This document shows positions 7,904 to 54,643 of a stretch of DNA of 60,889 nt, piece after piece. The translations under genes and the position numbers were made by a program. The DNA is taken from positions 1-60,889 of the IMG/VR virus record IMGVR_UViG_3300011439_000016. The stretch is one strand, 5' to 3'. Source of the stretch: a virus. Its lineage: Duplodnaviria; Caudoviricetes. Below the pieces are notes generated by a model, which was not told the DNA's origin, did not search any database, and saw nothing but the letters and a program-made list of their open reading frames with translations. Numbering within the stretch: position 1 is the stretch's first letter; each line of letters begins with the position of its first letter.

Positions 7904-10900
7904 ATGGCTGACACCGGCTACAGGCCATACGGGGTGCGTTGGGACCGGCTGCCGCAGGCCACGAATATTGATGACCGGCGCGGACGTCCGATCGGCACAC
8001 CAGAACAACACGCAGCCATGCAGCGTGCTGCGGAGCGTTATTGGGCCGGAGAAATAAACGGCGCGGAATACACGAACATCGTCCAGCCCATCAGAGAAGC
8101 TTTTTACCACCAGCAGCACCCCACCGCGGTCGGCAGGGCCTGGGACACCGCAACTCGAAATCTCGATAAGGGGTGGACCGCCATTGACGATGCCACGCGC
8201 AGCTGGAGCACCCCACTGTCCAGAGACGCCGGCATCGACGACATCAACATCCGGCAACAAGAGGTTCCCGTCGACACCGCAACGCTATCCGACGGCATGA
8301 ATTCAGCTCCGTCGGATTACACCGGCGACTACGAGAGCGGCGACTTCAGCAGAGAAGAGTACAGCAGCCCTTACGAGCGCAGCACCCAAGGCTATGACGA
8401 AGCCGGATTCGAGGACGAGTCGGGTGCACCCAGCTACGACGAGGCCGGGTTCGAGGAAGATGAACCTGGTTACGAATACACGGAAGATCCACAGCAATAC
8501 ACAAACCCGGTCGAGCAATCGTCCTTCGACGAGACCGGATTCCAGGAAGAACTCGAGGCGTCGAGCTACGACGAGTCCGGGTTCGAGGATGCCGAGGGTT
8601 ACGCGGAAGGCGGCGAGGTCGAGGAGGATGAGTGGGAGACCTACGTAGATCCCCCGCAGCAATACGCCCAGTCGGCGGTCGGCACCGGGACGATGACGGA
8701 CGAAAGTCCCGAGCAGCCCGCGCCCAAACCCGCAGACGAGTGGGAGACCTACGTCGAGCCGCCCGAAGAAGCACCGCGCGTGCCGTCGATGTCGGATACC
8801 GGAGACGTGTGGTCGGGACAGGAAGCGCCCCCGCCCGTCCAGCGAGCCAGCGACAACGAGTGGCAGGACTACGTCGAACCCGACACCCCGCTGGGAGCGT
8901 TCAGTCGCGAGGTTGCTAAGGGCCTAGGTCCAGCAGCTGCTGGATCTGTTCTCGGCGCAGGGACCGGAGCCGCGCTTGGTGCCGCCGGATTCAACCCGGT
9001 CACCGTGGTCGGCGGCACCCTGATCGGGGGTGTTGCTGGCGGCTTCGGCGCCGAGGCACTGCAGGAAAAGGGCCTGCGGGCGTGGGGCGCGCAAGACGAT
9101 GCCGCGATCCGCCGCGCCAACGAGGAAGCCCATCCCTGGTCGACCTACGGCGGTAAAGCCATCTCCAACATCGCGGGCGGCGCTGCCGGTTTGGGCAAGG
9201 CCGCCATAACGACCGGTGCCAGGGTGCTTGGCGGCGGTATCGGCGCGGCCTGGGAAGCCGGCGTGCAGATGTACCATGGCCGGCCAGCCAAGGAGGCGCT
9301 CCCCGCGATCGCCTCCAGCGCCGTTGGCGGCGCGGTGTTCGCTGGAAAGCGCCCGTGGAGCCAGTGGGGAGAGACACAAGGAGCGAAGATCGGCGCCCGC
9401 TTCGCGCCAGCACCGCCGCCCGCACCCGCGCCGCCGATCCAACCCGCCGCGCCACCGCCGGATCAGGGGCAGCTGCCGTTCGGAGATACCCAAGCTCCCC
9501 CACATCTCCCCAAAGCAGGCGGGCCGCAGCAAGCCCAGATCGGTGGCGGCGAGGCGCAACCCGCGCTGCCGTTCGGTCAACCGGCACAGCCAGGTCGGCC
9601 GGGGGTCAGCCGGCAGCCGGAGCTGCCGCTTGAGCCACCGCCAACCGTCGATGCGCAAGGCCAGTACGGGCTGACGCTCAACGCGCCGCACCATGCCAGC
9701 CGGCACAGCCCGGACTCCACACCGGCTGGAGCCGGTAGCGCCAAGGAGCTGCCGCCGCCACGGGAGACCCAGTGGCCGGCGGTGCCGGACAGCGCGCGGC
9801 CCAGAGAACCGAACGCGCGTCCGCACAGCGCGGTCGGCGAAGGCCTAGCGCAGGAAGCCGCCGGTGTGGCGCCGCGCACGGCGGCCGGCATCCATGTCCT
9901 GCAGCCGGGGCAGATGGATCCGACGATCCAGGCCGGACTCAGGCAACCGACGGAAACCCTGCCGGTCCCCCCGCGCACGACGTTCGAACCGCCGCGCCCG
10001 CCATCACGTACGCCACCGGCACCGGTCGTGGAGCCGCTGCCGCGCAGCCGGTCACTGACGCACCCCAACACCAGGACGACGCAAGGCGTCACCGAACCAC
10101 CAGTCCCCGGCGGACACACCCGGATGTACCAGGGCCGCGGTCAGCCGCCGCGCGAGTTCTCGACCGATCGCGCAGTCGCGCAGCGGTACGGCCAGGTGAA
10201 ATACACCGACGTCAAGAACGACAGCATGCCGTTCTTCAAGCCCGGACGGCAGCAGGGACAGTACGTCACCGACAATCCGAACTTCCGGCAGCGGGCGCAG
10301 CCGGTCGGGCAGATCCAAACACAACCGCCAGGTGGGAGGAAAGCGGCGCCTGCGCCGGACGCAACCTCGCCCGCTGCCACTTCACCACCCGCTGGCGGCG
10401 CACCGCCCGTACCACGAATGTCCACGCCGGAGATCGACGCCGCGATCACGCGGGCGGTCGGACCGGGCGCGGCAGCTGCTCCAGCTGCGCCCGCGCGCCC
10501 CGCTGCGCCGCAAGCCCGCCAGGCCATCCTGACCACCAAGGCCGGCAAGCGCCCGGTGCGCGTCTCGCCCGACCCGCCGCGCAAAGGCAAGGACGGCCGC
10601 GAGTACCAGAAGGTCACCTACAAGGGGAAAGACTACTTCGTCCCGGCCGAACAGCTGACCATGAAGCCGCCGCCGAAGACCGACGCCGCGCGACGGGAGG
10701 AGTCGTTCAAAATCCTGGCGGACATAGACGCCAGAAAGAAAGCTGGTCAGGGGCTGCCGGAGCATCCGGCAGAACCGTCCGCCGACATGAGCTTCATCGG
10801 GCGCGAGGCGCTGGCGATCGCCAAAAAGATCGAGGCAACCGGACAACCGGACGCCAAGAGTTTTGTCGCCGGCATGCGCGCCGCAGCACACACCAACCGG

Positions 10901-13900
10901 GTCACGCCGGAAAATATGAAGTTCTACGAGCAACGGCTCGCCGAGTACCAGGCGCGGGTCGGCGGCGACAAGCCGAAGGAAGGCTATTCCGCCAGGAACA
11001 TGCTGGAGCCTGCGCAGAACAAGAAACTCGACACACTGCTCAAGGACCGCAGCACGCCGGCAAAGAACGAACTCGCCACCCTGCTCGACCGGGCCGTAAC
11101 GCGCAGTCAGGCGCTGGCCGAAGAGATCAACGCCGCCGGCTGGCGCATCCGCGACATCAACAGCGGGGACGTACGCATCCCGCCCGAGATCAGGGCAGCA
11201 CGCGCAAACCTGACCGCGATCGGCGGCTCGCTGGCGCGAACGCTGAACGGCATCAAGCTGGACAGCTACACAGGCAAGAAAACCCCGAAGCAGATCGAGG
11301 CCAGGGTGAAGGCCGACGTCGCGATGCTGCGCAAGGATCTGGCCAGCCAGAAACCGGAAACAATCCCGCAGCCAAAGAGGGAGCCTGCCCCGCCCGAGAA
11401 CGTGAAATACGCCGAAGAGCAAGCCGCCAGGGGAAAGAAAGAGATCGCCGAACACGCCGCCGACGTAACGGCGCGCGCCACCGCGCCGATCGACGTCAAG
11501 CTGGCGAACACGCTTCTTAACCAACCTGCAAGGTTGCGTGAAGAGGCGGCCAAACGCGGCGTTCGGCCGGACGAACTCAAGGCGCAGGCGCAAGAAGCCG
11601 TCAAACCCAAGCCGGTGGAAACGGCGCAGGTCAAGACGTTGCCCAAACCGGGTGACGATCTCGAGATCCCGGACTTCCTCAAGCGCGCGCCGAAAGCCGA
11701 GGCGCCGGCAGCTGCGGCAGAGAAGCCGCTCTACCCGCACGCCGCAACGCCCAAGCCCAAACTGGAAGCCGCCCTCGCAAAGGCCAGAGCGGAGGGGACA
11801 AAGCTCAACGAGGAAATGATCGCAGCCGGTCGCGGCACCGAGAAGCCGACGGAGACCAGGGGCAAGACCGACGACCTGTCGCAGCGCGTCAACAAATCCC
11901 ACGAACTGGAGAGAAGCCTGCAGGAAGAGGTCAAGCGGCGGCAGCGGTACCACGGCAAGACCACCCCGATCCCGGAAGGCAGCGCGCGCGACTCGTTCAT
12001 GGCCGAAGGGTTGATCCGACCAGGCGCAACGCGCGGTGACCCCGGCGCGCGGCGTGAAGGCGGTCCGCGCCGCATCGGCCGGCGCCCCGAGAAGCTGCCG
12101 ATCGGCACCGAACAGAAGATCCTGGAGAAGGGCTACGAAAAGGCGACCGGGCCGAAGCAGGAGCCGCGCAAGCCGTACATGGAGGGTGCCGAACGCAAAG
12201 GCGCCAAGGCCAAGGTCAAGACCCACGACGACGCGGTGTTCACGGGCGCCACCGTGCACGAAGCCGCCGTGTTCGCGCGCAACGCCGGCTACAAGGCGCA
12301 TCAGATTTTCGAGATGGGTGGCAAGCCCTATTCCCCGCCGAAGGCAGCCGCGTCAACAACCCCCGCCGCTGCCAAAGCCGCGCCTGCCGTCACCGGTTCC
12401 TCCGGTGGCGGCGGGACGCCGCCTGGCCCAAAGCTGACTGCGACCCCCGCGCCGGGAACGCCACAGGCACCTCCCGGCAAGATCATGGAAGCCGTCCAAG
12501 CGGGCAGCAACAAACTGTTTGATATCGGTCACGCGGTACAGATGCTGGCCACTCCGATGGTGCGCGGCACTCAGACCAGCATGGCGCTGGCCAAGGATTT
12601 TGCCAACACGTTGCGGCGCAACCGCTGGGAATGGTCGGACATCGACACCAAGATCGAGAAGAACCACAACCCGGAACGGCGCAAGGCGATGTGGGAAGCC
12701 GCCGACGCCGAGAGCGTGGCGCAGCAGCAGGGCAAGGCGGCCGGCAGCACGCCGGAATGGAAGGCCCTGGCGCCGAAAGAGCGCGACACCCTCAACGACT
12801 TGCACGAACGCGGCAAGGATGCGTGGGAGCGCGCCCGTGCTCTCGGCATGGTCGAAGGCGAGGGGTTGCCGGCCTACACGCCGCGCATGTTGATCAACCT
12901 CGCCAGGGGCAGCAGCGAAGGCGGACCAACCAACCTCGATCCGATCGGCCTCAACCTGCGCACCACCACTCCGCAGCTGAAGCACCGCAAGCACCTGACC
13001 ACGGCAGAAACCGAAGCGGCTGCAAAGCTCAAGTTCGGTGATAAGGCCGAGGTCGTAAAGGATATCCGCACCCTGCCGCTCGTCATCGCCAGACTCGAGG
13101 ATGCGATCGCCGGCCGCACCATGGTCGATGACATCAAAAAGATCGGCAAGCGCACCGGCACCGACGTCATAGCCGAAGGCTTCAAGCCGACCGGTAGCGA
13201 CCACGAGTGGTTCACCATCGATCACCCGTCGCTCAAGACCTGGCGCAAGAGCGGCGACAATTTTGTTCAGGTGCCGATCTACGTCCGCGGTGACTTCGAA
13301 GGTCCGCTACGGGCAGTCCTAACCAAGCCGTCTGGTCCGCTTTACAACCTGATGATGGACCTCAAATCCAAGTCCATGTCGGTGATCATGAACTCGCCGA
13401 TGATCCACAACGCGGTGGAGTGGGGCCGCGCGCTGCCGGCGATGCCGGGTAAGGTTCTCACCTTCAGGGTTTACTTCGACGGCAACCGCGCCAAGCACGA
13501 TCCCGCTGTCATGCGCGAGGCGATCGACAGCGGCCTGGTGCCGATCGGCAAGCGGTTCTTCAACCAGGATGTCCATGCCCTGCTGGAAGAACCGAACCTG
13601 ACGCCGGGACGATCCTGGACCTCGCAGGTTGTAGCCTTCGTACCCGGACTGTTCAGCAAGGAACTCAGCAACAAAACCAAGCTCGCCATCGATAAGGCCG
13701 GCGACTTCTGGCACAACACCTTGCTATGGGACCGGATCGGCGATCTGCAGATGGGGCTTTACACCAATCTGCGCGAAACAATCATGGCCAAGGGCGTCGA
13801 CCGGCAGACCGCTTCGCGCACGGCCGCCCACCTGGCCAACCGCTATGCCGGCGCCATCCCGCACGAAGCGATGTCCGACGGCGCGCGCAAGCTCGCCAAC

Positions 13901-14986
13901 GGGCTGATGTTCTCGCGCTCTTTCACGCTGGGCAACATCGGCGCCATGAAGGACATGTTCAACGGCATGCCGAAGGACGTGCGGGCACAGATCGAACGCG
14001 ACGTCGGCAGTCTCGACCCGAAGGCTATGGCTTACATCAAGTCGTACGCCAGGCGCAAAGCCGTTGCCATCATCGGGTTGGACATCGCGCTGATGTACAT
14101 CGGCAACTCGCTGCTGCAGAGCGGGTTGAACGTGTTGAAGGGCGACAAGACGCTTGACGAAGAAGGCCGCGGCTACATCGAACGTATGAACAGCATGATG
14201 AAGCATGTGGAGGAGAACCCGTGGGCGCTGCTGCAGCCGTTCCATTTGATGGAGTCGTTGTCGTCGACATCGGAGAACGAACCGGGCAAGCAGGACCGTG
14301 TCAGGGTAGGTTACACCAATGACGGTCAGGCCATCTACCTTCGTAACCCGGCCGGCAAGATCGGCGAGGAATTCGTCGGCTGGGCGACCGCTCCGCTCGA
14401 CATGATGCGGCGCAAGATGAGCACGATGGCGCGTCCGGCTTGGCAAATCATGTCCAACGACAAGGGCTTCGGCCGCAAGGTCTACGATCCGAACGCCGAC
14501 TCGGTTGGAAAATACACCAAGAACATAGCCAAAATATTTGAGCACATTGCTACGGCCCAAACGCCGGAGATCCAGATCAGCGGTGCGAAGAACCTCATTA
14601 CTGGTGAGGGTGACCCGACGCTGAGTAAATTCCAAACCTTCGGTCCGCTTGTCGGCGTGACGGCATCGCGCGGCGCCCCCGGCGGTCCCGCCATGGGCGA
14701 ACTCTACAAGGGCCGCGAGAAGCACCAGTTTTCCGTCAACGAGGCGCTGCCGGAGATCCGGCGTCTGATCAAGAGCGAGAAGGAAGGCGACTTCGACAAA
14801 GCGATCGACAAGATGTCCGATCTGGGCATCCCCAAGGCGCTGCAGAAATTCTACATTCGCACCACGCAAGACCCGAGCACACGGCTGACGCCAAAGGCAG
14901 CGAAGGATTTCTATCGTTACGCTACACCAGACGAAATCAAACGCTTCGAACGCGCGCAGGAGCAGCAGCAGAGGCGGCAGCAATAA
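7904..14986 (+). CDS. Giant internal virion (ejection) protein 3
   Basis: 2360 aa; Gly/Ala-rich hydrophobic segment near aa 340-480; helical C-terminal region; last and largest of the trio, as in podoviruses. Confidence 0.7.
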   Translation: MADTGYRPYGVRWDRLPQATNIDDRRGRPIGTPEQHAAMQRAAERYWAGEINGAEYTNIVQPIREAFYHQQHPTAVGRAWDTATRNLDKGWTAIDDATRSWSTPLSRDAGIDDINIRQQEVPVDTATLSDGMNSAPSDYTGDYESGDFSREEYSSPYERSTQGYDEAGFEDESGAPSYDEAGFEEDEPGYEYTEDPQQYTNPVEQSSFDETGFQEELEASSYDESGFEDAEGYAEGGEVEEDEWETYVDPPQQYAQSAVGTGTMTDESPEQPAPKPADEWETYVEPPEEAPRVPSMSDTGDVWSGQEAPPPVQRASDNEWQDYVEPDTPLGAFSREVAKGLGPAAAGSVLGAGTGAALGAAGFNPVTVVGGTLIGGVAGGFGAEALQEKGLRAWGAQDDAAIRRANEEAHPWSTYGGKAISNIAGGAAGLGKAAITTGARVLGGGIGAAWEAGVQMYHGRPAKEALPAIASSAVGGAVFAGKRPWSQWGETQGAKIGARFAPAPPPAPAPPIQPAAPPPDQGQLPFGDTQAPPHLPKAGGPQQAQIGGGEAQPALPFGQPAQPGRPGVSRQPELPLEPPPTVDAQGQYGLTLNAPHHASRHSPDSTPAGAGSAKELPPPRETQWPAVPDSARPREPNARPHSAVGEGLAQEAAGVAPRTAAGIHVLQPGQMDPTIQAGLRQPTETLPVPPRTTFEPPRPPSRTPPAPVVEPLPRSRSLTHPNTRTTQGVTEPPVPGGHTRMYQGRGQPPREFSTDRAVAQRYGQVKYTDVKNDSMPFFKPGRQQGQYVTDNPNFRQRAQPVGQIQTQPPGGRKAAPAPDATSPAATSPPAGGAPPVPRMSTPEIDAAITRAVGPGAAAAPAAPARPAAPQARQAILTTKAGKRPVRVSPDPPRKGKDGREYQKVTYKGKDYFVPAEQLTMKPPPKTDAARREESFKILADIDARKKAGQGLPEHPAEPSADMSFIGREALAIAKKIEATGQPDAKSFVAGMRAAAHTNRVTPENMKFYEQRLAEYQARVGGDKPKEGYSARNMLEPAQNKKLDTLLKDRSTPAKNELATLLDRAVTRSQALAEEINAAGWRIRDINSGDVRIPPEIRAARANLTAIGGSLARTLNGIKLDSYTGKKTPKQIEARVKADVAMLRKDLASQKPETIPQPKREPAPPENVKYAEEQAARGKKEIAEHAADVTARATAPIDVKLANTLLNQPARLREEAAKRGVRPDELKAQAQEAVKPKPVETAQVKTLPKPGDDLEIPDFLKRAPKAEAPAAAAEKPLYPHAATPKPKLEAALAKARAEGTKLNEEMIAAGRGTEKPTETRGKTDDLSQRVNKSHELERSLQEEVKRRQRYHGKTTPIPEGSARDSFMAEGLIRPGATRGDPGARREGGPRRIGRRPEKLPIGTEQKILEKGYEKATGPKQEPRKPYMEGAERKGAKAKVKTHDDAVFTGATVHEAAVFARNAGYKAHQIFEMGGKPYSPPKAAASTTPAAAKAAPAVTGSSGGGGTPPGPKLTATPAPGTPQAPPGKIMEAVQAGSNKLFDIGHAVQMLATPMVRGTQTSMALAKDFANTLRRNRWEWSDIDTKIEKNHNPERRKAMWEAADAESVAQQQGKAAGSTPEWKALAPKERDTLNDLHERGKDAWERARALGMVEGEGLPAYTPRMLINLARGSSEGGPTNLDPIGLNLRTTTPQLKHRKHLTTAETEAAAKLKFGDKAEVVKDIRTLPLVIARLEDAIAGRTMVDDIKKIGKRTGTDVIAEGFKPTGSDHEWFTIDHPSLKTWRKSGDNFVQVPIYVRGDFEGPLRAVLTKPSGPLYNLMMDLKSKSMSVIMNSPMIHNAVEWGRALPAMPGKVLTFRVYFDGNRAKHDPAVMREAIDSGLVPIGKRFFNQDVHALLEEPNLTPGRSWTSQVVAFVPGLFSKELSNKTKLAIDKAGDFWHNTLLWDRIGDLQMGLYTNLRETIMAKGVDRQTASRTAAHLANRYAGAIPHEAMSDGARKLANGLMFSRSFTLGNIGAMKDMFNGMPKDVRAQIERDVGSLDPKAMAYIKSYARRKAVAIIGLDIALMYIGNSLLQSGLNVLKGDKTLDEEGRGYIERMNSMMKHVEENPWALLQPFHLMESLSSTSENEPGKQDRVRVGYTNDGQAIYLRNPAGKIGEEFVGWATAPLDMMRRKMSTMARPAWQIMSNDKGFGRKVYDPNADSVGKYTKNIAKIFEHIATAQTPEIQISGAKNLITGEGDPTLSKFQTFGPLVGVTASRGAPGGPAMGELYKGREKHQFSVNEALPEIRRLIKSEKEGDFDKAIDKMSDLGIPKALQKFYIRTTQDPSTRLTPKAAKDFYRYATPDEIKRFERAQEQQQRRQQ

Positions 14987-28226: not shown

Positions 28227-28582
28227 AGCCGCTCCCAATATTTGATTTCTTCCGACTTGCTGTTGAACACCTCGACAGCGGCCTCGCCAATGGTGAAGCC
28301 CAGCGATTGCGCCATCAAGTCGAGGTAGACGAACGTGTCGCCAAGCTCGCGGCGCAGGGCCACGCGCAGTTCCTCATCGGTCTGCTTGTTACCCGGCACC
28401 CCGTCGCGGCTGCGGTTGAGCTTCTTGACGATGTTGGCGGCCTCGCCAATCTCGCCCACGACAGCCGTCATCCAGTCGGATGTCGACCATTCGTCGAGCC
28501 TGTGGTTGAAGCCGTGCGGGTGTTCGCAGCGCCGGCGGTTGGCCTCGCTGAACGTGCTGAACCTGAATGCGTATGGTGTCAC
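28223..28582 (-). CDS. MazG-like nucleotide pyrophosphohydrolase
   Basis: GEIGEAANIVKKL...ELGDTFVYL...FNSKS. Confidence 0.85.
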   Translation of the reverse strand: MTPYAFRFSTFSEANRRRCEHPHGFNHRLDEWSTSDWMTAVVGEIGEAANIVKKLNRSRDGVPGNKQTDEELRVALRRELGDTFVYLDLMAQSLGFTIGEAAVEVFNSKSEEIKYWERL

Positions 28583-28676
28583 AGTTCCCTCCAGTCAAAA
28601 CAATAAGCGCCGTACCAAACCTCCAGAATGCAGATGGACATGAGCGATAGTCCCATCGGCCATGTCCCCTCATCCG

Positions 28677-28973
28677 TCATTTACGAGTCTTAGATCTAAA
28701 TTTAGAAGACTGCAAGAGCGCGGCCTGCTTGACGGCAGCCAGTTCGGCCTTGTCCGCCGCGGCCTTGGCCCGCATCGCCTCGAACCGGGGACGGTCGCGC
28801 TCCCGGCGCAAGGCCTTGTCGTACTCCTTGGATGCACGGTAGGCCTTCTCGGTTTCGGTCAGTTCGCGACCGCTGAACGATTGCGCCGCCTTGGGTGGGT
28901 TGCGCTTCCAGGCCTCGGCGCGGACCTCTGCCGGGATGCGGAGAAAATCTGGAATATCCATATCGTCAGACAT
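28677..28973 (-). CDS. Early protein with N-terminal FtsZ-tail-like peptide (DDMDIPDFLR)
   Basis: RBS AACGGAG; own promoter at 29008-29036. Confidence 0.7.
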   Translation of the reverse strand: MSDDMDIPDFLRIPAEVRAEAWKRNPPKAAQSFSGRELTETEKAYRASKEYDKALRRERDRPRFEAMRAKAAADKAELAAVKQAALLQSSKFRSKTRK

Positions 28974-29011
28974 AAAAAGACTCCGTTGTGTTTTCATTCA
29001 CAAACGGAGTC
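28974..29011 (-). terminator. Hairpin + U5 overlapping RBS of the 28973 gene
   Basis: minus gactccgtttgtg-aatgaaaa-cacaacggagtc-ttttt-ATG. Confidence 0.6.
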
Positions 29012-29036
29012 TAGCACAGATTGGCCTATGTGTCAA
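29008..29036 (-). promoter_or_regulatory. sigma70-type promoter TTGACA-N17-TAGACT with TAGGCCAATCTGT operator in spacer
   Basis: Direct reading of minus strand. Confidence 0.7.
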
Positions 29037-29049
29037 AACGACCCATTTC

Positions 29050-29295
29050 TTATTTTACATCTTTGTAGAATTGCTCGAACCGTTCCAGCATGTTCTTGAC
29101 CGTGAACTCCATGATCTCATCGTGATTGTCGAAGTAGCGCGTACCATATAGCTCGTGCACAATGCGCCAGCGTTTGTCGGCCGGCGCATCGTCGTTGACG
29201 CTGATCGACCAGCCGCTCGTTGTCAGGCTGTAGGCCTTGTAGCCATCGCCAACGTCTCGCCCCCGAAAACCGTTGTCACCCCGATTACCTTTCAT
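29050..29295 (-). CDS. Hypothetical protein
   Basis: ORF in operon. Confidence 0.65.
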   Translation of the reverse strand: MKGNRGDNGFRGRDVGDGYKAYSLTTSGWSISVNDDAPADKRWRIVHELYGTRYFDNHDEIMEFTVKNMLERFEQFYKDVK

Positions 29296-29632
29296 GATTG
29301 GCTCTCCATTTCACGCTCGCCTTCACCAGCAAATCCTTGACCCGGCGCACGGTAGCCTTGTGGCCGGTCTCGGCATCGTCCCACGACGAATAGCGCCAGC
29401 ACATATCGCTGTCCTCCATGTTGATGCCGAACACCATGGTCTCGAACAACAGCGGCGGACCCCGATCACCAAAGCGGTGATCGAGGCCCAGGAATACGGT
29501 GCTGACCAGGACGTCGGGATCGAAGCGAGTGTGCTGCACGATGCGGTCGCCGGTTTCGAACCATGTCGCCCATTCCATCAAGCCGCACTGCACGATGCGA
29601 TGCTGGTCATCCAGCTTGTAATATTTGATCAT
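29285..29632 (-). CDS. Hypothetical conserved phage protein
   Basis: VSTVFLGLDHRFG..PPLLFETMVFG motif. Confidence 0.75.
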   Translation of the reverse strand: MIKYYKLDDQHRIVQCGLMEWATWFETGDRIVQHTRFDPDVLVSTVFLGLDHRFGDRGPPLLFETMVFGINMEDSDMCWRYSSWDDAETGHKATVRRVKDLLVKASVKWRANHER

Positions 29633-36118: not shown

Positions 36119-36148
36119 AAAAAACCGGGCGTTAATTAACGCCCGGTT
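36119..36148 (-). terminator. Perfect palindrome hairpin + U-tract
   Basis: aaccgggcgttaattaacgcccggtt followed by tttt on minus. Confidence 0.7.
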
Positions 36149-36157
36149 AATTGCGGC

Positions 36158-42696: not shown

Positions 42697-42711
42697 TTAA
42701 CGATTCCTTAA
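42697..42711. promoter_or_regulatory. CtrA-type box TTAA-N7-TTAA centred between divergent terS and portal
   Basis: ttaa cgattcc ttaa; 24 nt from each box edge to each ATG. Confidence 0.75.
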
Positions 42712-42734: not shown

Positions 42735-45044
42735 ATGGCACTCGGCGAAGCAAACGTCCTGCAAGTGGTCCCGCCTGCGGCGCTGGAAGCGCATCTGCAG
42801 GAGCAGGAGGCGGCGAGATCCGCGGCTGCGGCGCCGCAGGACAACGCGCCGCCGGTGCCTGAGCTGGTCGGCTACATTCGCGGCCAGTTCGAGATCATGC
42901 GCAACCATCGCAACACCGCCTCCGGGTGGTCGGGCCGGCTGATCGAGGCGTTGCGCGTTTTCAACGGCCAGTATTCCCCCGACAAGATGCGAGAGGTGAC
43001 CAAATTTGGCGGTTCGCAGATTTATGCGCGTCTTACAGCGCAGAAGTGCCGCGCTGCTTCTTCGCTATTACGGGATGTCTACCTTGGCGGCGACCGTCCC
43101 TGGGCGATCCGTCCGCCGGCCGACCCGGACATCCCGGACGAAATCCTTCAGAAAATCGACGCGCTGATCAAGAACGAAGCGCAGATGGTGGCGCAGACCA
43201 CCGGCCAGCATCCCCCCGAAGACGCCACGCTGAAGCGCAAGATCGCGCTGCTCGAGTCCGCATTCGAGGCTGCCAAGAAGAAAGCCGCCAAGCAGGCCAA
43301 GCTTGCGGAGGATCGCATCGAGGAGATCCTGCGTGGCGGGATGTACTATCACGCGCTAGCGGAGTTCATCGTCGACCTGCCGATCTTCCCGTTTGCCTGC
43401 CTCAAGGGGCCGATGGTCAAGATCATGCCCGAGGTGGTATGGCCGCCGGGAGGCGGGCAGCCGACGGTCCAGCAGATCCCGAAGATGATCTGGGGCCGCA
43501 TATCGCCGTTCGACGTCTGGTGGACGCCCGGTGTCGCCGACATAGCGAATGCAAATGTGATCGAGAAGTCCCGCCTTACACGGGCAGAGTTGAACGACCT
43601 GCTCGATCTCCCCGGCTTCAATCAGGACGAGGTACGGAAAGTACTCGAGGAATATGGTCGGGGTGGGCTGTACGACAACTGGGATACGACCGACGCTGAG
43701 AGAGCGGTGCTCGAGAGTCGCGAAAACCCGGCCTGGAACCGATCCGGGTTGATCTCCCAGATGGAGTTTCATGGCAATGTACAGGGAGCAGTGCTGCAAG
43801 AATACGGAATGCCTGGAGTCTCTGATCCACTGAGGGACTACCATATCGACGCCTATTGCATCGGCTCTCATTGCATCAAAGCCAGCCTATCTCCGTCACC
43901 CCGCGCACGGCACAACTATTTCATTACAAGTTTCGAAAAGGTACCGGGCACGCCGATCGGCAACGGCCTGTCCGACATGATCAGCGATCTGCAGGACGTC
44001 GCCAACGCCACGCTGCGTTCTCTCGTCAACAACATTTCAATTTCCAGTGGTCCGCAGGTCGTGGTCAACGACGATCGCTGCCGCCCGGAGGAGAACACCG
44101 ACGAGCTGTTCCCGTGGAAACGCTGGCACGTCACCAACGATCCGGTCGGCAACAATTCCAAGCCGCCGGTCGAGTTCTTTCAGCCGCAGAGCAACGCCAA
44201 CGACTTGCTGACGGTTTTCAAGGCGTTCGTCGATCTCAGCGACGACGTGTCGGCGATCCCGAAGTACATCGGCGGTCAGGCGTCGGGCGGCGCCGGCCGC
44301 ACCTCGTCCGGCCTCGCCATGCTGATGGCCAACGCGAGTAAGATCTTGCAAACAGTGGCCTCCAACATCGATCGCGATGTGGTCGACGTGTCGCTGATCC
44401 AGCTGTCCGATCTGGTGATGCTCACCGATACGACAGGGATACTGACGGGTACGGAGGATATTTACGTTCAGGGCGTCAACGTCGCGGTGCAGCGCGAGAC
44501 GCAGCGCCAGCGTCAGCTCGAGTTCCTGCAGCACACCGCCAACCCAATCGACATGGACATCATGGGCATCACCGGTCGTGGCACCGTGCTGCGTTCTGTG
44601 TCGCAAACGATTGGTCTGGACGGCGACAAGGTGGTGCCATCCGACGAAGAGCTGATGAAGAAGCAGGAAGCCAAGGAGAAGGGCAAACAGAACCAGGACA
44701 TCAGCGAGCAGGTCGACAAAGGTATTCAGGAGGGCGTCAATCAAGGCGTGCAGAGAATTACCGCCGAACTCACCTCCGGTTTCCTCGCGTCGAAGGCCAA
44801 GATGCCTGGCGACGAAGGGCCGGTTGGCGACGGGCCAGATCCTGCAGGGCCTCCGGGTCAGCCAGGAACACCGCCCGGTGGGCCGCCGCCTGGTGGAAAT
44901 GTTGAGCAGTTCCGGCGCATGCAGGGCGCACAGCCTTCGCGCATGAACAATCAGCAGACGCAACCGGTGGATATGACCGGCAATCAGCCAAGGCCGCCTG
45001 GTCCCGGTGGGCGTCCACGTCCCATCATCGGCGGACCGGGCTAG
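42735..45044 (+). CDS. Portal protein
   Basis: 769 aa; size, position next to terminase, DLQDVANATLRSLVNN and RTSSGLAMLM podoviral portal-like motifs. Confidence 0.88.
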   Translation: MALGEANVLQVVPPAALEAHLQEQEAARSAAAAPQDNAPPVPELVGYIRGQFEIMRNHRNTASGWSGRLIEALRVFNGQYSPDKMREVTKFGGSQIYARLTAQKCRAASSLLRDVYLGGDRPWAIRPPADPDIPDEILQKIDALIKNEAQMVAQTTGQHPPEDATLKRKIALLESAFEAAKKKAAKQAKLAEDRIEEILRGGMYYHALAEFIVDLPIFPFACLKGPMVKIMPEVVWPPGGGQPTVQQIPKMIWGRISPFDVWWTPGVADIANANVIEKSRLTRAELNDLLDLPGFNQDEVRKVLEEYGRGGLYDNWDTTDAERAVLESRENPAWNRSGLISQMEFHGNVQGAVLQEYGMPGVSDPLRDYHIDAYCIGSHCIKASLSPSPRARHNYFITSFEKVPGTPIGNGLSDMISDLQDVANATLRSLVNNISISSGPQVVVNDDRCRPEENTDELFPWKRWHVTNDPVGNNSKPPVEFFQPQSNANDLLTVFKAFVDLSDDVSAIPKYIGGQASGGAGRTSSGLAMLMANASKILQTVASNIDRDVVDVSLIQLSDLVMLTDTTGILTGTEDIYVQGVNVAVQRETQRQRQLEFLQHTANPIDMDIMGITGRGTVLRSVSQTIGLDGDKVVPSDEELMKKQEAKEKGKQNQDISEQVDKGIQEGVNQGVQRITAELTSGFLASKAKMPGDEGPVGDGPDPAGPPGQPGTPPGGPPPGGNVEQFRRMQGAQPSRMNNQQTQPVDMTGNQPRPPGPGGRPRPIIGGPG

Positions 45045-51277: not shown

Positions 51278-51540
51278 ACGACATTCTGGACGACCTGCGC
51301 GACTTGTATCTGCAGGCGACCACCGAACGCAGCCACTACTACGTTGCCGGTGTCGTCGAGCGAGCGATCGCGGAAATCGAGCGTTTGCGCGGGTTGCGCG
51401 GGCCGTATTTTACCAAGGTGCAGTGGTTTGACCTGCCACTGGCGCTTCGGAAGCGGTGGTGGGAGGAGACCGGATACGGCAGCGCGGTGCCGTCCCCCGA
51501 ATTGCTGGCAACAATTAAAGCCGCCCTCAAACACACTTAA
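51274..51540 (+). CDS. Hypothetical protein
   Basis: GTGA-coupled; AIAEIERLR. Confidence 0.6.
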   Translation: MNDILDDLRDLYLQATTERSHYYVAGVVERAIAEIERLRGLRGPYFTKVQWFDLPLALRKRWWEETGYGSAVPSPELLATIKAALKHT

Positions 51541-51568
51541 CATTTCCTTAAGAATTAGCGGCTAGCCT
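51537..51568 (+). promoter_or_regulatory. CtrA-type box + GCTAGCCT -10-like element (head operon promoter)
   Basis: ttaa catttcc ttaa N9 gctagcct. Confidence 0.75.
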
Positions 51569-53607: not shown

Positions 53608-54615
53608 ATGCCTGTTCCAACCGCTGGTTATCCCATTGCAACAGTGGGATCGACGACGCCGCTGACGCCTGTCGGCTCGACGGCCAATACCCTCCAAGCG
53701 ACCGGATTTATCCCGGAAATTTGGAGCGCGAAAATGGTCGAGAAGTTCTACGCCTCCACCGTCCTGTCGGCGATCTCCAACACCGACTATGAGGGCGAAA
53801 TCCAGAACATGGGCGATCGGGTCAAGATCCGAACCAAGCCCACCATCACCATCAAGGACTACCAGGCCGACGGTCTGCTTGGCCTCGACCGCCCGTCCGG
53901 CGGCTCGATCGAGCTGTACATCGGCATCGGCAAGTACTTCTCGCTGATCCTCGACGACGTGATGGAGATCCAGAGCGATCTCAATCTGCTCTCGATGTGG
54001 TCGGACGACGCGGCGCAGCAACTCAAGATCACGGTCGATCGCGATGTGCTGGGCGGCCTGGTCGGCGGCGCGCACGCCAAGAACAAGGGTGCGACGGCTG
54101 GTCTGATCTCCGGCAACCTCAACCTCGGCATCAAGGGCACCCCGGTGACGGTGGTGAAGGCGGCGCCGACGGCGGGTCAGGCGGACATCCTGGAAGTGCT
54201 GCTCCGTCTCGGCCAGTGCATGGACGAGCAGAACATCCCGGAAACCGGGCGTTGGGTGGTCATGTCGGCTGCTCTCGGGCGCTACCTCAAGCAGTCCGAG
54301 TTGAGGCAGGCTTACCTGTCCGGCGATCCGGTCTCGATGCTGCGCAACGGCCGGCTGGGCATGGTGGATCGGTTCACGATCTACATTTCCAACCTGCTGC
54401 CGTCTGCAGCGACCGACGCGACCAACTTCGCAGCCGGCGAGCAGCCGGTGTTTGCCGGACACGCGCACGGACTGACGTTCGCCTCGCAGATCTCCAAGGT
54501 GGAGACGCTGCGCAGCGAGCTGACCTTCGGGCAGATTTTGCGTGGCTTGCAGGTCTACGGTTACCAGATCGTCGACCCGACGGCGCTCTGCGAAGCCAAG
54601 GTCATTTTGGCTTAA
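53608..54615 (+). CDS. Major capsid protein
   Basis: FIPEIWS...NTDYEGEI..GDRVKI; RGLQVYG; P22-coat-like podoviral MCP motifs. Confidence 0.93.
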   Translation: MPVPTAGYPIATVGSTTPLTPVGSTANTLQATGFIPEIWSAKMVEKFYASTVLSAISNTDYEGEIQNMGDRVKIRTKPTITIKDYQADGLLGLDRPSGGSIELYIGIGKYFSLILDDVMEIQSDLNLLSMWSDDAAQQLKITVDRDVLGGLVGGAHAKNKGATAGLISGNLNLGIKGTPVTVVKAAPTAGQADILEVLLRLGQCMDEQNIPETGRWVVMSAALGRYLKQSELRQAYLSGDPVSMLRNGRLGMVDRFTIYISNLLPSAATDATNFAAGEQPVFAGHAHGLTFASQISKVETLRSELTFGQILRGLQVYGYQIVDPTALCEAKVILA

Positions 54616-54643
54616 CCATTCCTTAAGAATCGACCCCTAGACT
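54612..54643 (+). promoter_or_regulatory. CtrA-type box + CCTAGACT -10-like element (neck/tail operon promoter)
   Basis: ttaa ccattcc ttaa N9 cctagact. Confidence 0.75.

Follow-up and report, generated by a model that had tools for sequence, protein, structure and literature searches.

Several small proteins encoded by phages and prophages inhibit bacterial cell division, namely lambda Kil, T7 Gp0.4, P1 Icd, KilR of the Rac prophage and DicB (PMC3961180, PMC4944311, PMC11897509, PMC12482147). According to the accessible portions of these articles, the known inhibitors act on FtsZ itself or via ZipA or MinC, the division-blocking phage proteins that have been studied work in enteric bacteria or Bacillus, and none is described there as a copy of the FtsZ tail. 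The receptors of this tail compete for it, and its I, F and L residues are needed for the binding of FtsA, ZipA and MinC, as stated in the available part of PMC4117426. The window considered here is the whole of the IMG/VR virus record IMGVR_UViG_3300011439_000016 (60,889 bp). Its minus strand carries the gene of a 98-residue protein, P0001 (28677..28973, stop included), whose N-terminal peptide resembles the FtsZ tail of alphaproteobacteria, the class to which the host of this phage probably belongs. The sequence comparisons described below suggest that P0001 may be a competitive brake on division that copies the FtsZ tail, a reading to which we give a probability of about 0.4.

The inhibitors listed above are, in the available text of the same articles, early or moron-like proteins of small size that block cytokinesis, and P0001 would resemble them in being small and early. 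It differs from them in that it has no sequence relation to any of them (no Pfam, PHROG or NCBIfam family is matched, apart from one chance Pfam match of 9 bits) and in its host range, which would be alphaproteobacterial rather than enteric. MinC and SlmA attack the same interface between the FtsZ tail and its receptors, but they bind the tail, whereas P0001 would imitate it. A search of the literature, supplements excluded, found no description of a phage protein that copies the FtsZ tail.

The closest counterpart of the P0001 peptide is the conserved C-terminal peptide of FtsZ (CTC or CCTP), which reads L[DE]IPAFLRRQ[AS]N in alphaproteobacteria. Residues 4–12 of P0001, DMDIPDFLR (28938..28964, minus strand), have the same D-I-P-x-F-L-R core with I, F and L in place, and DDMDIPDFLR conforms to the pattern [DE]-[IV]-P-x-F-[LIM]-[RK] preceded by acidic residues. 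The closest relatives of P0001 carry DDLDIPAFLR (one of them is 93% identical to it), the FtsZ of Rhizobium reads EDDQLEIPAFLRRQSN, and the E. coli tail is DYLDIPAFLRKQAD, whose equivalent I, P, F, L and R are retained in P0001. In FtsZ the peptide lies at the chain end or in a disordered stretch, and the phage copies may do likewise: that of P0001 starts at residue 4, and a second one, on a giant protein, is embedded in P/A/K-rich low complexity. The differences are as follows: the x position is D, E or A on the phage side and A, T or S in FtsZ; in P0001 a hydrophobic residue and a conserved extra helix come after the core, where FtsZ has R-Q-A-N and then stops; and the phage carriers of the peptide, unlike FtsZ, have no GTPase domain. 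Since there is no FtsZ_C match in the phage record and no Pfam match for P0001, the protein would be a mimic and not a member of the FtsZ family.

The FtsZ tails used for comparison were picked without selection for the motif. FtsZ was present in 41 of 41 alphaproteobacterial genomes, and 29 loci were read, which gave 28 complete tails (one unpublished genome was excluded). Their consensus is L[DE]IP[ATS]FLRRQ, in which P, F and R never vary, with I in 26 and L in 27 of the 28. A pattern scan of 120 loci, those of Rhizobium, Ensifer and Agrobacterium among them, found EIPAFLRRQ at 119 in-frame places, 113 of which end exactly two residues before the stop. When the P0001 family is aligned with the 28 tails by hhalign, the probability is 95% over 10–11 columns, with P values of 4.2e-8 for a 27-column module and 6.5e-8 for the whole family. 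The control alignment with 30 alphaproteobacterial SSB tails (LDDEIPF) yields probabilities of 2.5–5% and P values of 0.018 and 0.007 over 3–4 columns; mimicry of the SSB tail (DDDIPF) was dropped as a candidate on these values.

A 10-column weight matrix made from the 28 tails was applied to 90,545 six-frame positions of the window (mean −30.9 bits, standard deviation 6.6 bits). The best position of all is LEIPDFLKRA in the giant protein (15.4 bits, about 7 standard deviations above the mean), and MDIPDFLRIP of P0001 comes third, with 7.9 bits. The 66 called proteins (17,443 residues) contain two instances of the pattern [DE]IP.FL[RK], compared to 0.0013 expected from composition; this expectation is analytic, and the pattern was set after the first copy had been seen.

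The P0001 gene is real and under purifying selection. The ratio of non-synonymous to synonymous change (pN/pS) is 0.15 and 0.25 in comparisons with L144 and L145, respectively, two metagenome contigs whose encoded proteins are 92–94% identical to P0001, and 0.07 between L144 and L145. All features named in the initial annotation are present on the minus strand. The reading frame 28973..28677 translates to 98 residues beginning MSDDMDIPDFLRIP, M1 and S2 are invariant in the seven closest sequences, and the upstream in-frame ATG at 28997 is missing from L144. A word-index search with P0001 retrieved six proteins at E ≤ 0.01 among 27 candidates, and an exhaustive search retrieved 36 cluster representatives at E ≤ 1e-3, 11 of them at E ≤ 1e-10.

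The most conserved part of this family is the N-terminal (L)DIPxFLR. In 42 aligned members, P8, F10, L11, R18 and W22 are at least 90% conserved, and in a cleaner set of 24 members only P8, F10 and L11 are invariant, with I7 conserved in at least 90%. In the only informative natural variant contig, codons 4, 7 and 10 change synonymously and positions 5 and 9 change residue. The idea that P0001 begins with an FtsZ-tail mimic, already put forward in the initial annotation, is thus supported at the level of sequence by the 28 tails, the hhalign comparison and the matrix, and concerns the best-conserved part of the family. As for the remainder of the protein, we propose that the motif is exposed at the N-terminus and followed by a short helical continuation, and that the C-terminal half is charged and coiled-coil-like, with a basic end.

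The second FtsZ-tail-like peptide, DDLEIPDFLKR (11654..11686, plus strand), lies at about residues 1251–1261 of a 2360-residue open reading frame (ORF; 7904..14986). This copy matches FtsZ in its flanks too (DD-LEIP-FL-KR; FLKRAPK) and does not have the continuation found in P0001. The ORF comes after two large ORFs (856 and 1099 residues) past the tail genes, and because of this position its product is probably a virion component, internal or ejected; neither Pfam nor PHROG gives it a match. Its first half (about 1200–1450 residues) is mostly of low complexity, with acidic repeats and P/A-rich runs. Twelve viral relatives are 54–58% identical to it over the C-terminal 860 residues and are only 1163–1356 residues long, and no relative of the middle region was found in viral contigs. 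The P0001 family is absent from five of the phages with these 12 relatives.

In P0001 the FtsZ-like peptide is only the first part of a longer conserved module of about 27 residues, which continues over residues 13–28 (IPAEVRAEAWKRNPPK; 28890..28937, minus strand) without FtsZ counterpart. A 42-residue N-terminal profile finds 65 proteins of 75–1309 residues at E ≤ 1, among 7999 scored candidates. Fifty-eight of them are new; [IVLM]P.[FWYL] occurs in the first 29 residues of 55, and the remaining three have FPDFLRI. The longer fused forms were seen only with this N-terminal profile: a search for them with the whole of P0001 scored none of 1043 candidates. The module proteins fall into three groups: the P0001 type, with ...AWxRNPPK; a DLDIP[TAD]FLRIPQEVRRESWRGRKLT type of mostly 75–96 residues, which also occurs as a fusion with DUF3489 in P0054 and with an AAA_25 ATPase in L158; and an M[YH][DN]IPDFLRI[PT]xEM type, which heads LysM-bearing proteins of up to 1309 residues.

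Among the cargos of the module are DUF3489 (P0054, P0075, L006), LysM giants (P0068, P0079, L157) and AAA_25 (L158). A Pfam scan of 29 of the 65 proteins gave matches for four (two DUF3489, two LysM) and none for 25. DUF3489 (PF11994) is a C-terminal domain of about 68 residues that ends the longer members of the module family and is missing from P0001; the matches have E values of 2.2e-14 in L006 and 1.9e-8 in P0054. Weak Trans_reg_C and GerE co-matches in relatives hint that this domain could be winged-helix-like.

Some carriers of the module have further peculiarities. Positions 121–7763 of L157, a contig of 31% G+C, encode a row of three large ORFs, of 1051, 543 and no fewer than 923 residues; the last starts with MYDIPDFLRIPAE and includes a LysM domain. 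More than 20 giants related to it, of up to 1309 residues, are nearly letter-identical over their first ~60 residues. In the metagenome contigs L153 (572–646), L154 (2401–2475) and L155 (4899–4973) the ORF consists of the module only and ends ...ESWRGRCC-stop after about 25–30 residues; relatives of these ORFs continue ...WRGRKLTKP, and P0086 (246 residues) reads through with the same RGRCC. The short forms are either truncated alleles or the result of a frame change.

The P0001 gene is preceded on the minus strand by a sigma-70-type promoter-like site (29008..29036), made of TTGACA (29036..29031), a spacer of 17 nt and TAGACT (29013..29008). It has a hexamer score of 10/12, a TG before the −10 and CATAGGCCAA in the spacer, and starts 13 bases past the stop of the upstream gene. 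Under a stricter rule applied to the whole window only two promoter-like sites pass, and that of P0001 alone has a perfect −35. The start of the RNA is predicted at about 29001. This places it within a hairpin (28978..29012, minus strand) of 13 pairs with one bulged U and an 8-nt loop, the stem of which is AGACUCCGUU-U-GUG / CAC-AACGGAGUCU, followed by the U-run UCUUUUUAUGU and then AUG. The 5′ arm of the hairpin overlaps the −10 hexamer, and the Shine-Dalgarno (SD) sequence GGAG (28981..28984, minus strand), 7 nt before the ATG, is inside the 3′ arm.

The hairpin has a computed folding energy of −19.6 kcal/mol (z −4.4; one shuffle in 200 is as good), and the larger context around it −30.3 kcal/mol (z −4.3). 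It is a stable G+C-rich stem-loop directly before the U-rich tract UUUUUAUGU, as in intrinsic terminators, and termination is predicted there. A terminator scan of the region did not list this hairpin, which we attribute to its one-base bulge, since the scan requires an ungapped stem. The RNA that begins at about 29001 has a weak fold (−3.2 kcal/mol, z +0.9) that would leave the SD accessible, while the full hairpin pairs it. The initial annotation had described both the promoter and this geometry, with the ribosome-binding site hidden in the read-through RNA, and the computed folds and the predicted start agree with it.

Both features are conserved in L144 and L145. Between the −35 and the ATG the three sequences share TTGACACATAGGCCA, GTGCTAG, AACGGAGTCTTTTTATG and the core of the stem, with −35, −10, SD and U-run among the parts that agree in every letter, and the genes upstream differ from that of the window and from each other. 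Since synonymous sites of the P0001 gene differ by 23–31% in these two contigs, the non-coding stretch appears to be under constraint. Equivalent hairpins fold in L144 (−22.1 kcal/mol) and L145 (−20.9 kcal/mol); the sole change in the stem core, an A to G in L144, retains a G-U pair and weakens the −10.

In known terminators that overlap a downstream promoter, and in leaders that sequester the SD, a G+C-rich stem with a U-run closes one unit and encloses the promoter of the next, and pairing of the SD is limited to the long RNA. The P0001 hairpin differs in that a single hairpin combines the three functions, the −10 (TAGACT-CC) being complementary to the SD region (GGAGTCT). We know of no named precedent for this exact overlap of terminator, promoter and SD, although no search aimed at one was made. 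If the predictions are right, the layout is a compact case in which one hairpin terminates the unit upstream, contributes to the promoter of the next and masks the ribosome-binding site.

The initial annotation also called the gene tightly insulated, which over-reads the layout. The P0001 stop overlaps the ATG of a 33-residue ORF (28579..28680, minus strand; ATGA), whose own stop overlaps the GTG of a MazG-like gene (GTGA). These overlaps suggest that the promoter probably drives the whole downstream unit, and the small ORF is probably translationally coupled. Its C-terminal YCFDWRE[LI]-stop is kept in L144, where it stands before a different downstream gene; its middle was judged hydrophobic by eye. 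The hairpin may simply end the upstream unit.

Other early-type promoter-like regions with a −35 of TTGACA or TTGACC are present on the minus strand at about 31022–30975, 33811–33765 and 37408–37370. All three have paired TGGCCTA/TAGGCCA motifs, with a spacing of 17 nt at two sites and of 38 nt at the other, and in L144 and L145 two copies of ATAGGCCA flank the −35. Motifs of this type may be the operator of a phage regulator. With two mismatches allowed, the 10-mer shows no overall enrichment (46 occurrences compared to 41 expected).

Taken as a division brake, P0001 would work as follows. Its gene would be the first cistron of an early or middle transcription unit read by the host RNA polymerase with a sigma-70-type factor. 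The hairpin and U-run would terminate the upstream unit and mask the ribosome-binding site in read-through RNA, and the embedded promoter would start the RNA within the 5′ arm, so that only promoter-initiated RNA would be translatable. The N-terminal D-[LMI]-D-I-P-x-F-L-R would dock in the pocket where the membrane anchors and regulators of FtsZ take its tail, the main candidate in alphaproteobacteria being FtsA, with MinC and FzlC where present. Competition with FtsZ for its anchors would delay cytokinesis during infection, and oligomerisation through the C-terminal half would supply the avidity that a single tail peptide lacks. The binding partner, the effect on division and any toxicity are inferred from sequence.

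A number of observations weigh against this interpretation. The basic or polar residues and C-terminus that end the FtsZ peptide are not seen in the P0001 family, whose core is followed by I, V or L and then by P, S or T; a hydrophobic residue thus always comes next to FLR (invariant in a 14-row alignment of the module), where FtsZ has R or K; and the module runs on for about 15 residues, as [PST]xExRxxxW and then NPPK or GRKLT, for which FtsZ has no counterpart. The hydrophobic residue and the extended module suggest that the partner may recognise something other than an FtsZ tail. The peptide is N-terminal in P0001 and C-terminal in FtsZ, and positions critical in FtsZ are altered in some members (FCR, FLV, FLL), up to L006, in which the FtsZ-like half is degenerate (GFPLFLL) and the second half (AWERNPPK) is kept.

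The motif statistics have weak points as well: the second place in the weight-matrix ranking goes to a non-coding frame, and a HMMER profile of the 28 tails, which is short, ranks the P0001 frame first of 1175 with an E value of 0.21 and the giant-protein frame fifth with 2.8. The region of the second copy is missing from the 12 viral relatives of the giant protein, and there is no such motif in Rhizobium phage RHph_TM3_14A. Promoter-like matches are not enriched as such (3 in 6 kb, compared to 2.3 ± 1.7 expected). The hairpin is backed by three sequences only, with no compensatory double change, so that its conservation is support and not proof. Finally, homologues in six viral contigs lie near DNA polymerases of two different PHROG types, a SNF2-type helicase, another helicase, Sak4 and a Cas4-type exonuclease (an integrase is also present on one of the six). 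The occurrence of the family in replication and recombination modules, together with the fusions to DNA-binding and ATPase domains, points to DNA transactions and not to division.

The most probable of the alternatives, though somewhat unlikely, is the following: the module (DIPxFLRI[PST]xExRxxxW) would be a binding helix-pair or mini-domain for a different partner, and its likeness to FtsZ would be convergent, consisting of an acidic run and then an amphipathic IPxFL turn. Candidate partners are phage proteins and host proteins of replication or transcription, or a host chaperone. The length of the module, the invariant hydrophobic residue after FLR, the selective decay of the FtsZ-like half in L006, the replication genes nearby and the marginal HMMER scores all agree with it. 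However, nine consecutive positions agree with the FtsZ tail of the host class, including every residue given as known for partner binding in the accessible part of the source cited above, and the giant-protein copy matches FtsZ in its flanks without the module continuation. The SSB tail DDDIPF, the nearest testable alternative, fits poorly. The peptide also spans phages of 31% to 65% G+C and different polymerase types, and this speaks more for a conserved target in the host than for one specific to the phage.

Alternatively, the peptide could be a docking tag and not an inhibitor, which for P0001 itself seems unlikely. It would bring a cargo to FtsA or to other tail receptors at the membrane or division site. 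Ejected virion proteins, an ATPase, or phage DNA bound by winged-helix partners could be this cargo; P0001 would carry its own basic C-terminus, or a partner bound to the protein, and slowed division would be a side effect. The same N-terminal peptide is found on DUF3489 proteins, on an AAA_25 ATPase and on LysM giants of up to 1309 residues, the closest FtsZ-like copy is on the giant, probably ejected, protein of the phage itself, and the family is located in replication and recombination modules. On the contrary, P0001 has no recognisable cargo domain, and competition with FtsZ would follow docking anyway, so that the tag and inhibitor readings overlap. Docking or tethering as such appears as plausible as pure inhibition, given that the module extends beyond the FtsZ peptide and that other proteins have it joined to DNA-binding and ATPase domains. 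A chance resemblance in an ordinary small phage protein, with a hairpin that is only the terminator of the upstream gene, is very improbable: short motifs do recur, the whole genome was scanned for striking items and promoter-like sites are not enriched, but the family is under purifying selection, with the motif as its best-conserved part, and this motif is seen twice where 0.0013 is expected and heads dozens of proteins that are otherwise unrelated.

The window looks like a complete genome (about 92% complete) and has a G+C content of 60.7%. On its plus strand PHROG matches mark the structural genes, namely portal/adaptor, major head protein, tail fibre and endolysin; a long array on the minus strand leads from the terminase, past about 40 small genes of no assigned function, to a DNA polymerase, an exonuclease, a SNF2-type helicase and a primase/helicase. 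The phage is probably lytic and podovirus-like. Judged by the capsid protein, its closest cultured relatives are Rhizobium phages RHph_TM3_14A, TM27A, TM27B and TM29 (63.7% amino acid identity). RHph_TM3_14A (MN988472.1) is a clearly different genome, with no megablast match to the window and unrelated giant proteins: the C-terminal part of the 2360-residue protein (P0043) is unrelated to the 2307-residue protein of that phage. Both sequences are exactly 60,889 bp long, which we take as a coincidence.

The host assignment is also indicated by the enrichment of TTAA-N7-TTAA (36136–36150, 42697–42711, 51537–51551 and 54612–54626; four sites compared to 0.05 expected), which we read as CtrA-box-like. 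The CtrA elements mentioned in the initial annotation thus have counterparts in these enriched sites. Three of the four sites have TTAAC.ATTCCTTAA in common, and two stand just upstream of plus-strand structural genes, at 42735 (portal/adaptor) and 54671 (the gene after the major head protein). Such CtrA-box-like sites suggest that late genes are driven by a host cell-cycle regulator. A search of 25 Hyphomicrobiales genomes found FtsA in 23. DNA of this phage was found in 24 sequencing runs from freshwater-sediment, groundwater, sediment and soil metagenomes, none of which is an RNA run.

Searches for relatives elsewhere gave little. In the Protein Data Bank no relative of P0001 is found by sequence, the family profile giving only coiled-coil-like noise (E 1.8–4.9), and the ESM Atlas contains the exact P0001 sequence with no usable feature match. 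A tblastn search of 50,697 phage records gave no match for P0001, nor for P0043, P0085 or P0054, and a pattern scan of bacterial contigs gave 261 pattern matches with no relative. The family profile, which finds the phage's own record at 5e-42 as positive control, matches 0 of 401 Hyphomicrobiales genomes, a result that does not establish absence. The 27-residue module profile matches 6 of these 401 (E 6e-4 to 9e-3, 18–22 bits), which is about chance level over 401 genomes, and 0 of 401 at class level. The cultured-phage collection has no DNA match to the window, a scan found no tRNA genes, and Rfam has no match within 28400–29400.

Considered together with its fusions, the FtsZ-tail copy might, in a broader and doubtful reading, be a portable address label on proteins of many unrelated phages, with the tail receptors, FtsA above all, serving both as a division brake and as a landing pad. 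The giant-protein copy and the DNA-binding fusions would fit this, since divisome anchors may then be a landing pad for the phage. If it is true, phages of alphaproteobacteria, and probably of other hosts, land injected proteins and phage DNA on FtsZ-tail receptors, a kind of host takeover for which the literature search found no published description.

As a brake, tail imitation would strike the interface from its receptor side, at the conserved pocket that FtsA and its relatives offer to the tail. This pocket is a sought-after antibacterial target, for which a natural and recurring ligand would supply ready-made probes, and such a ligand would test directly how much loss of free receptor division tolerates.

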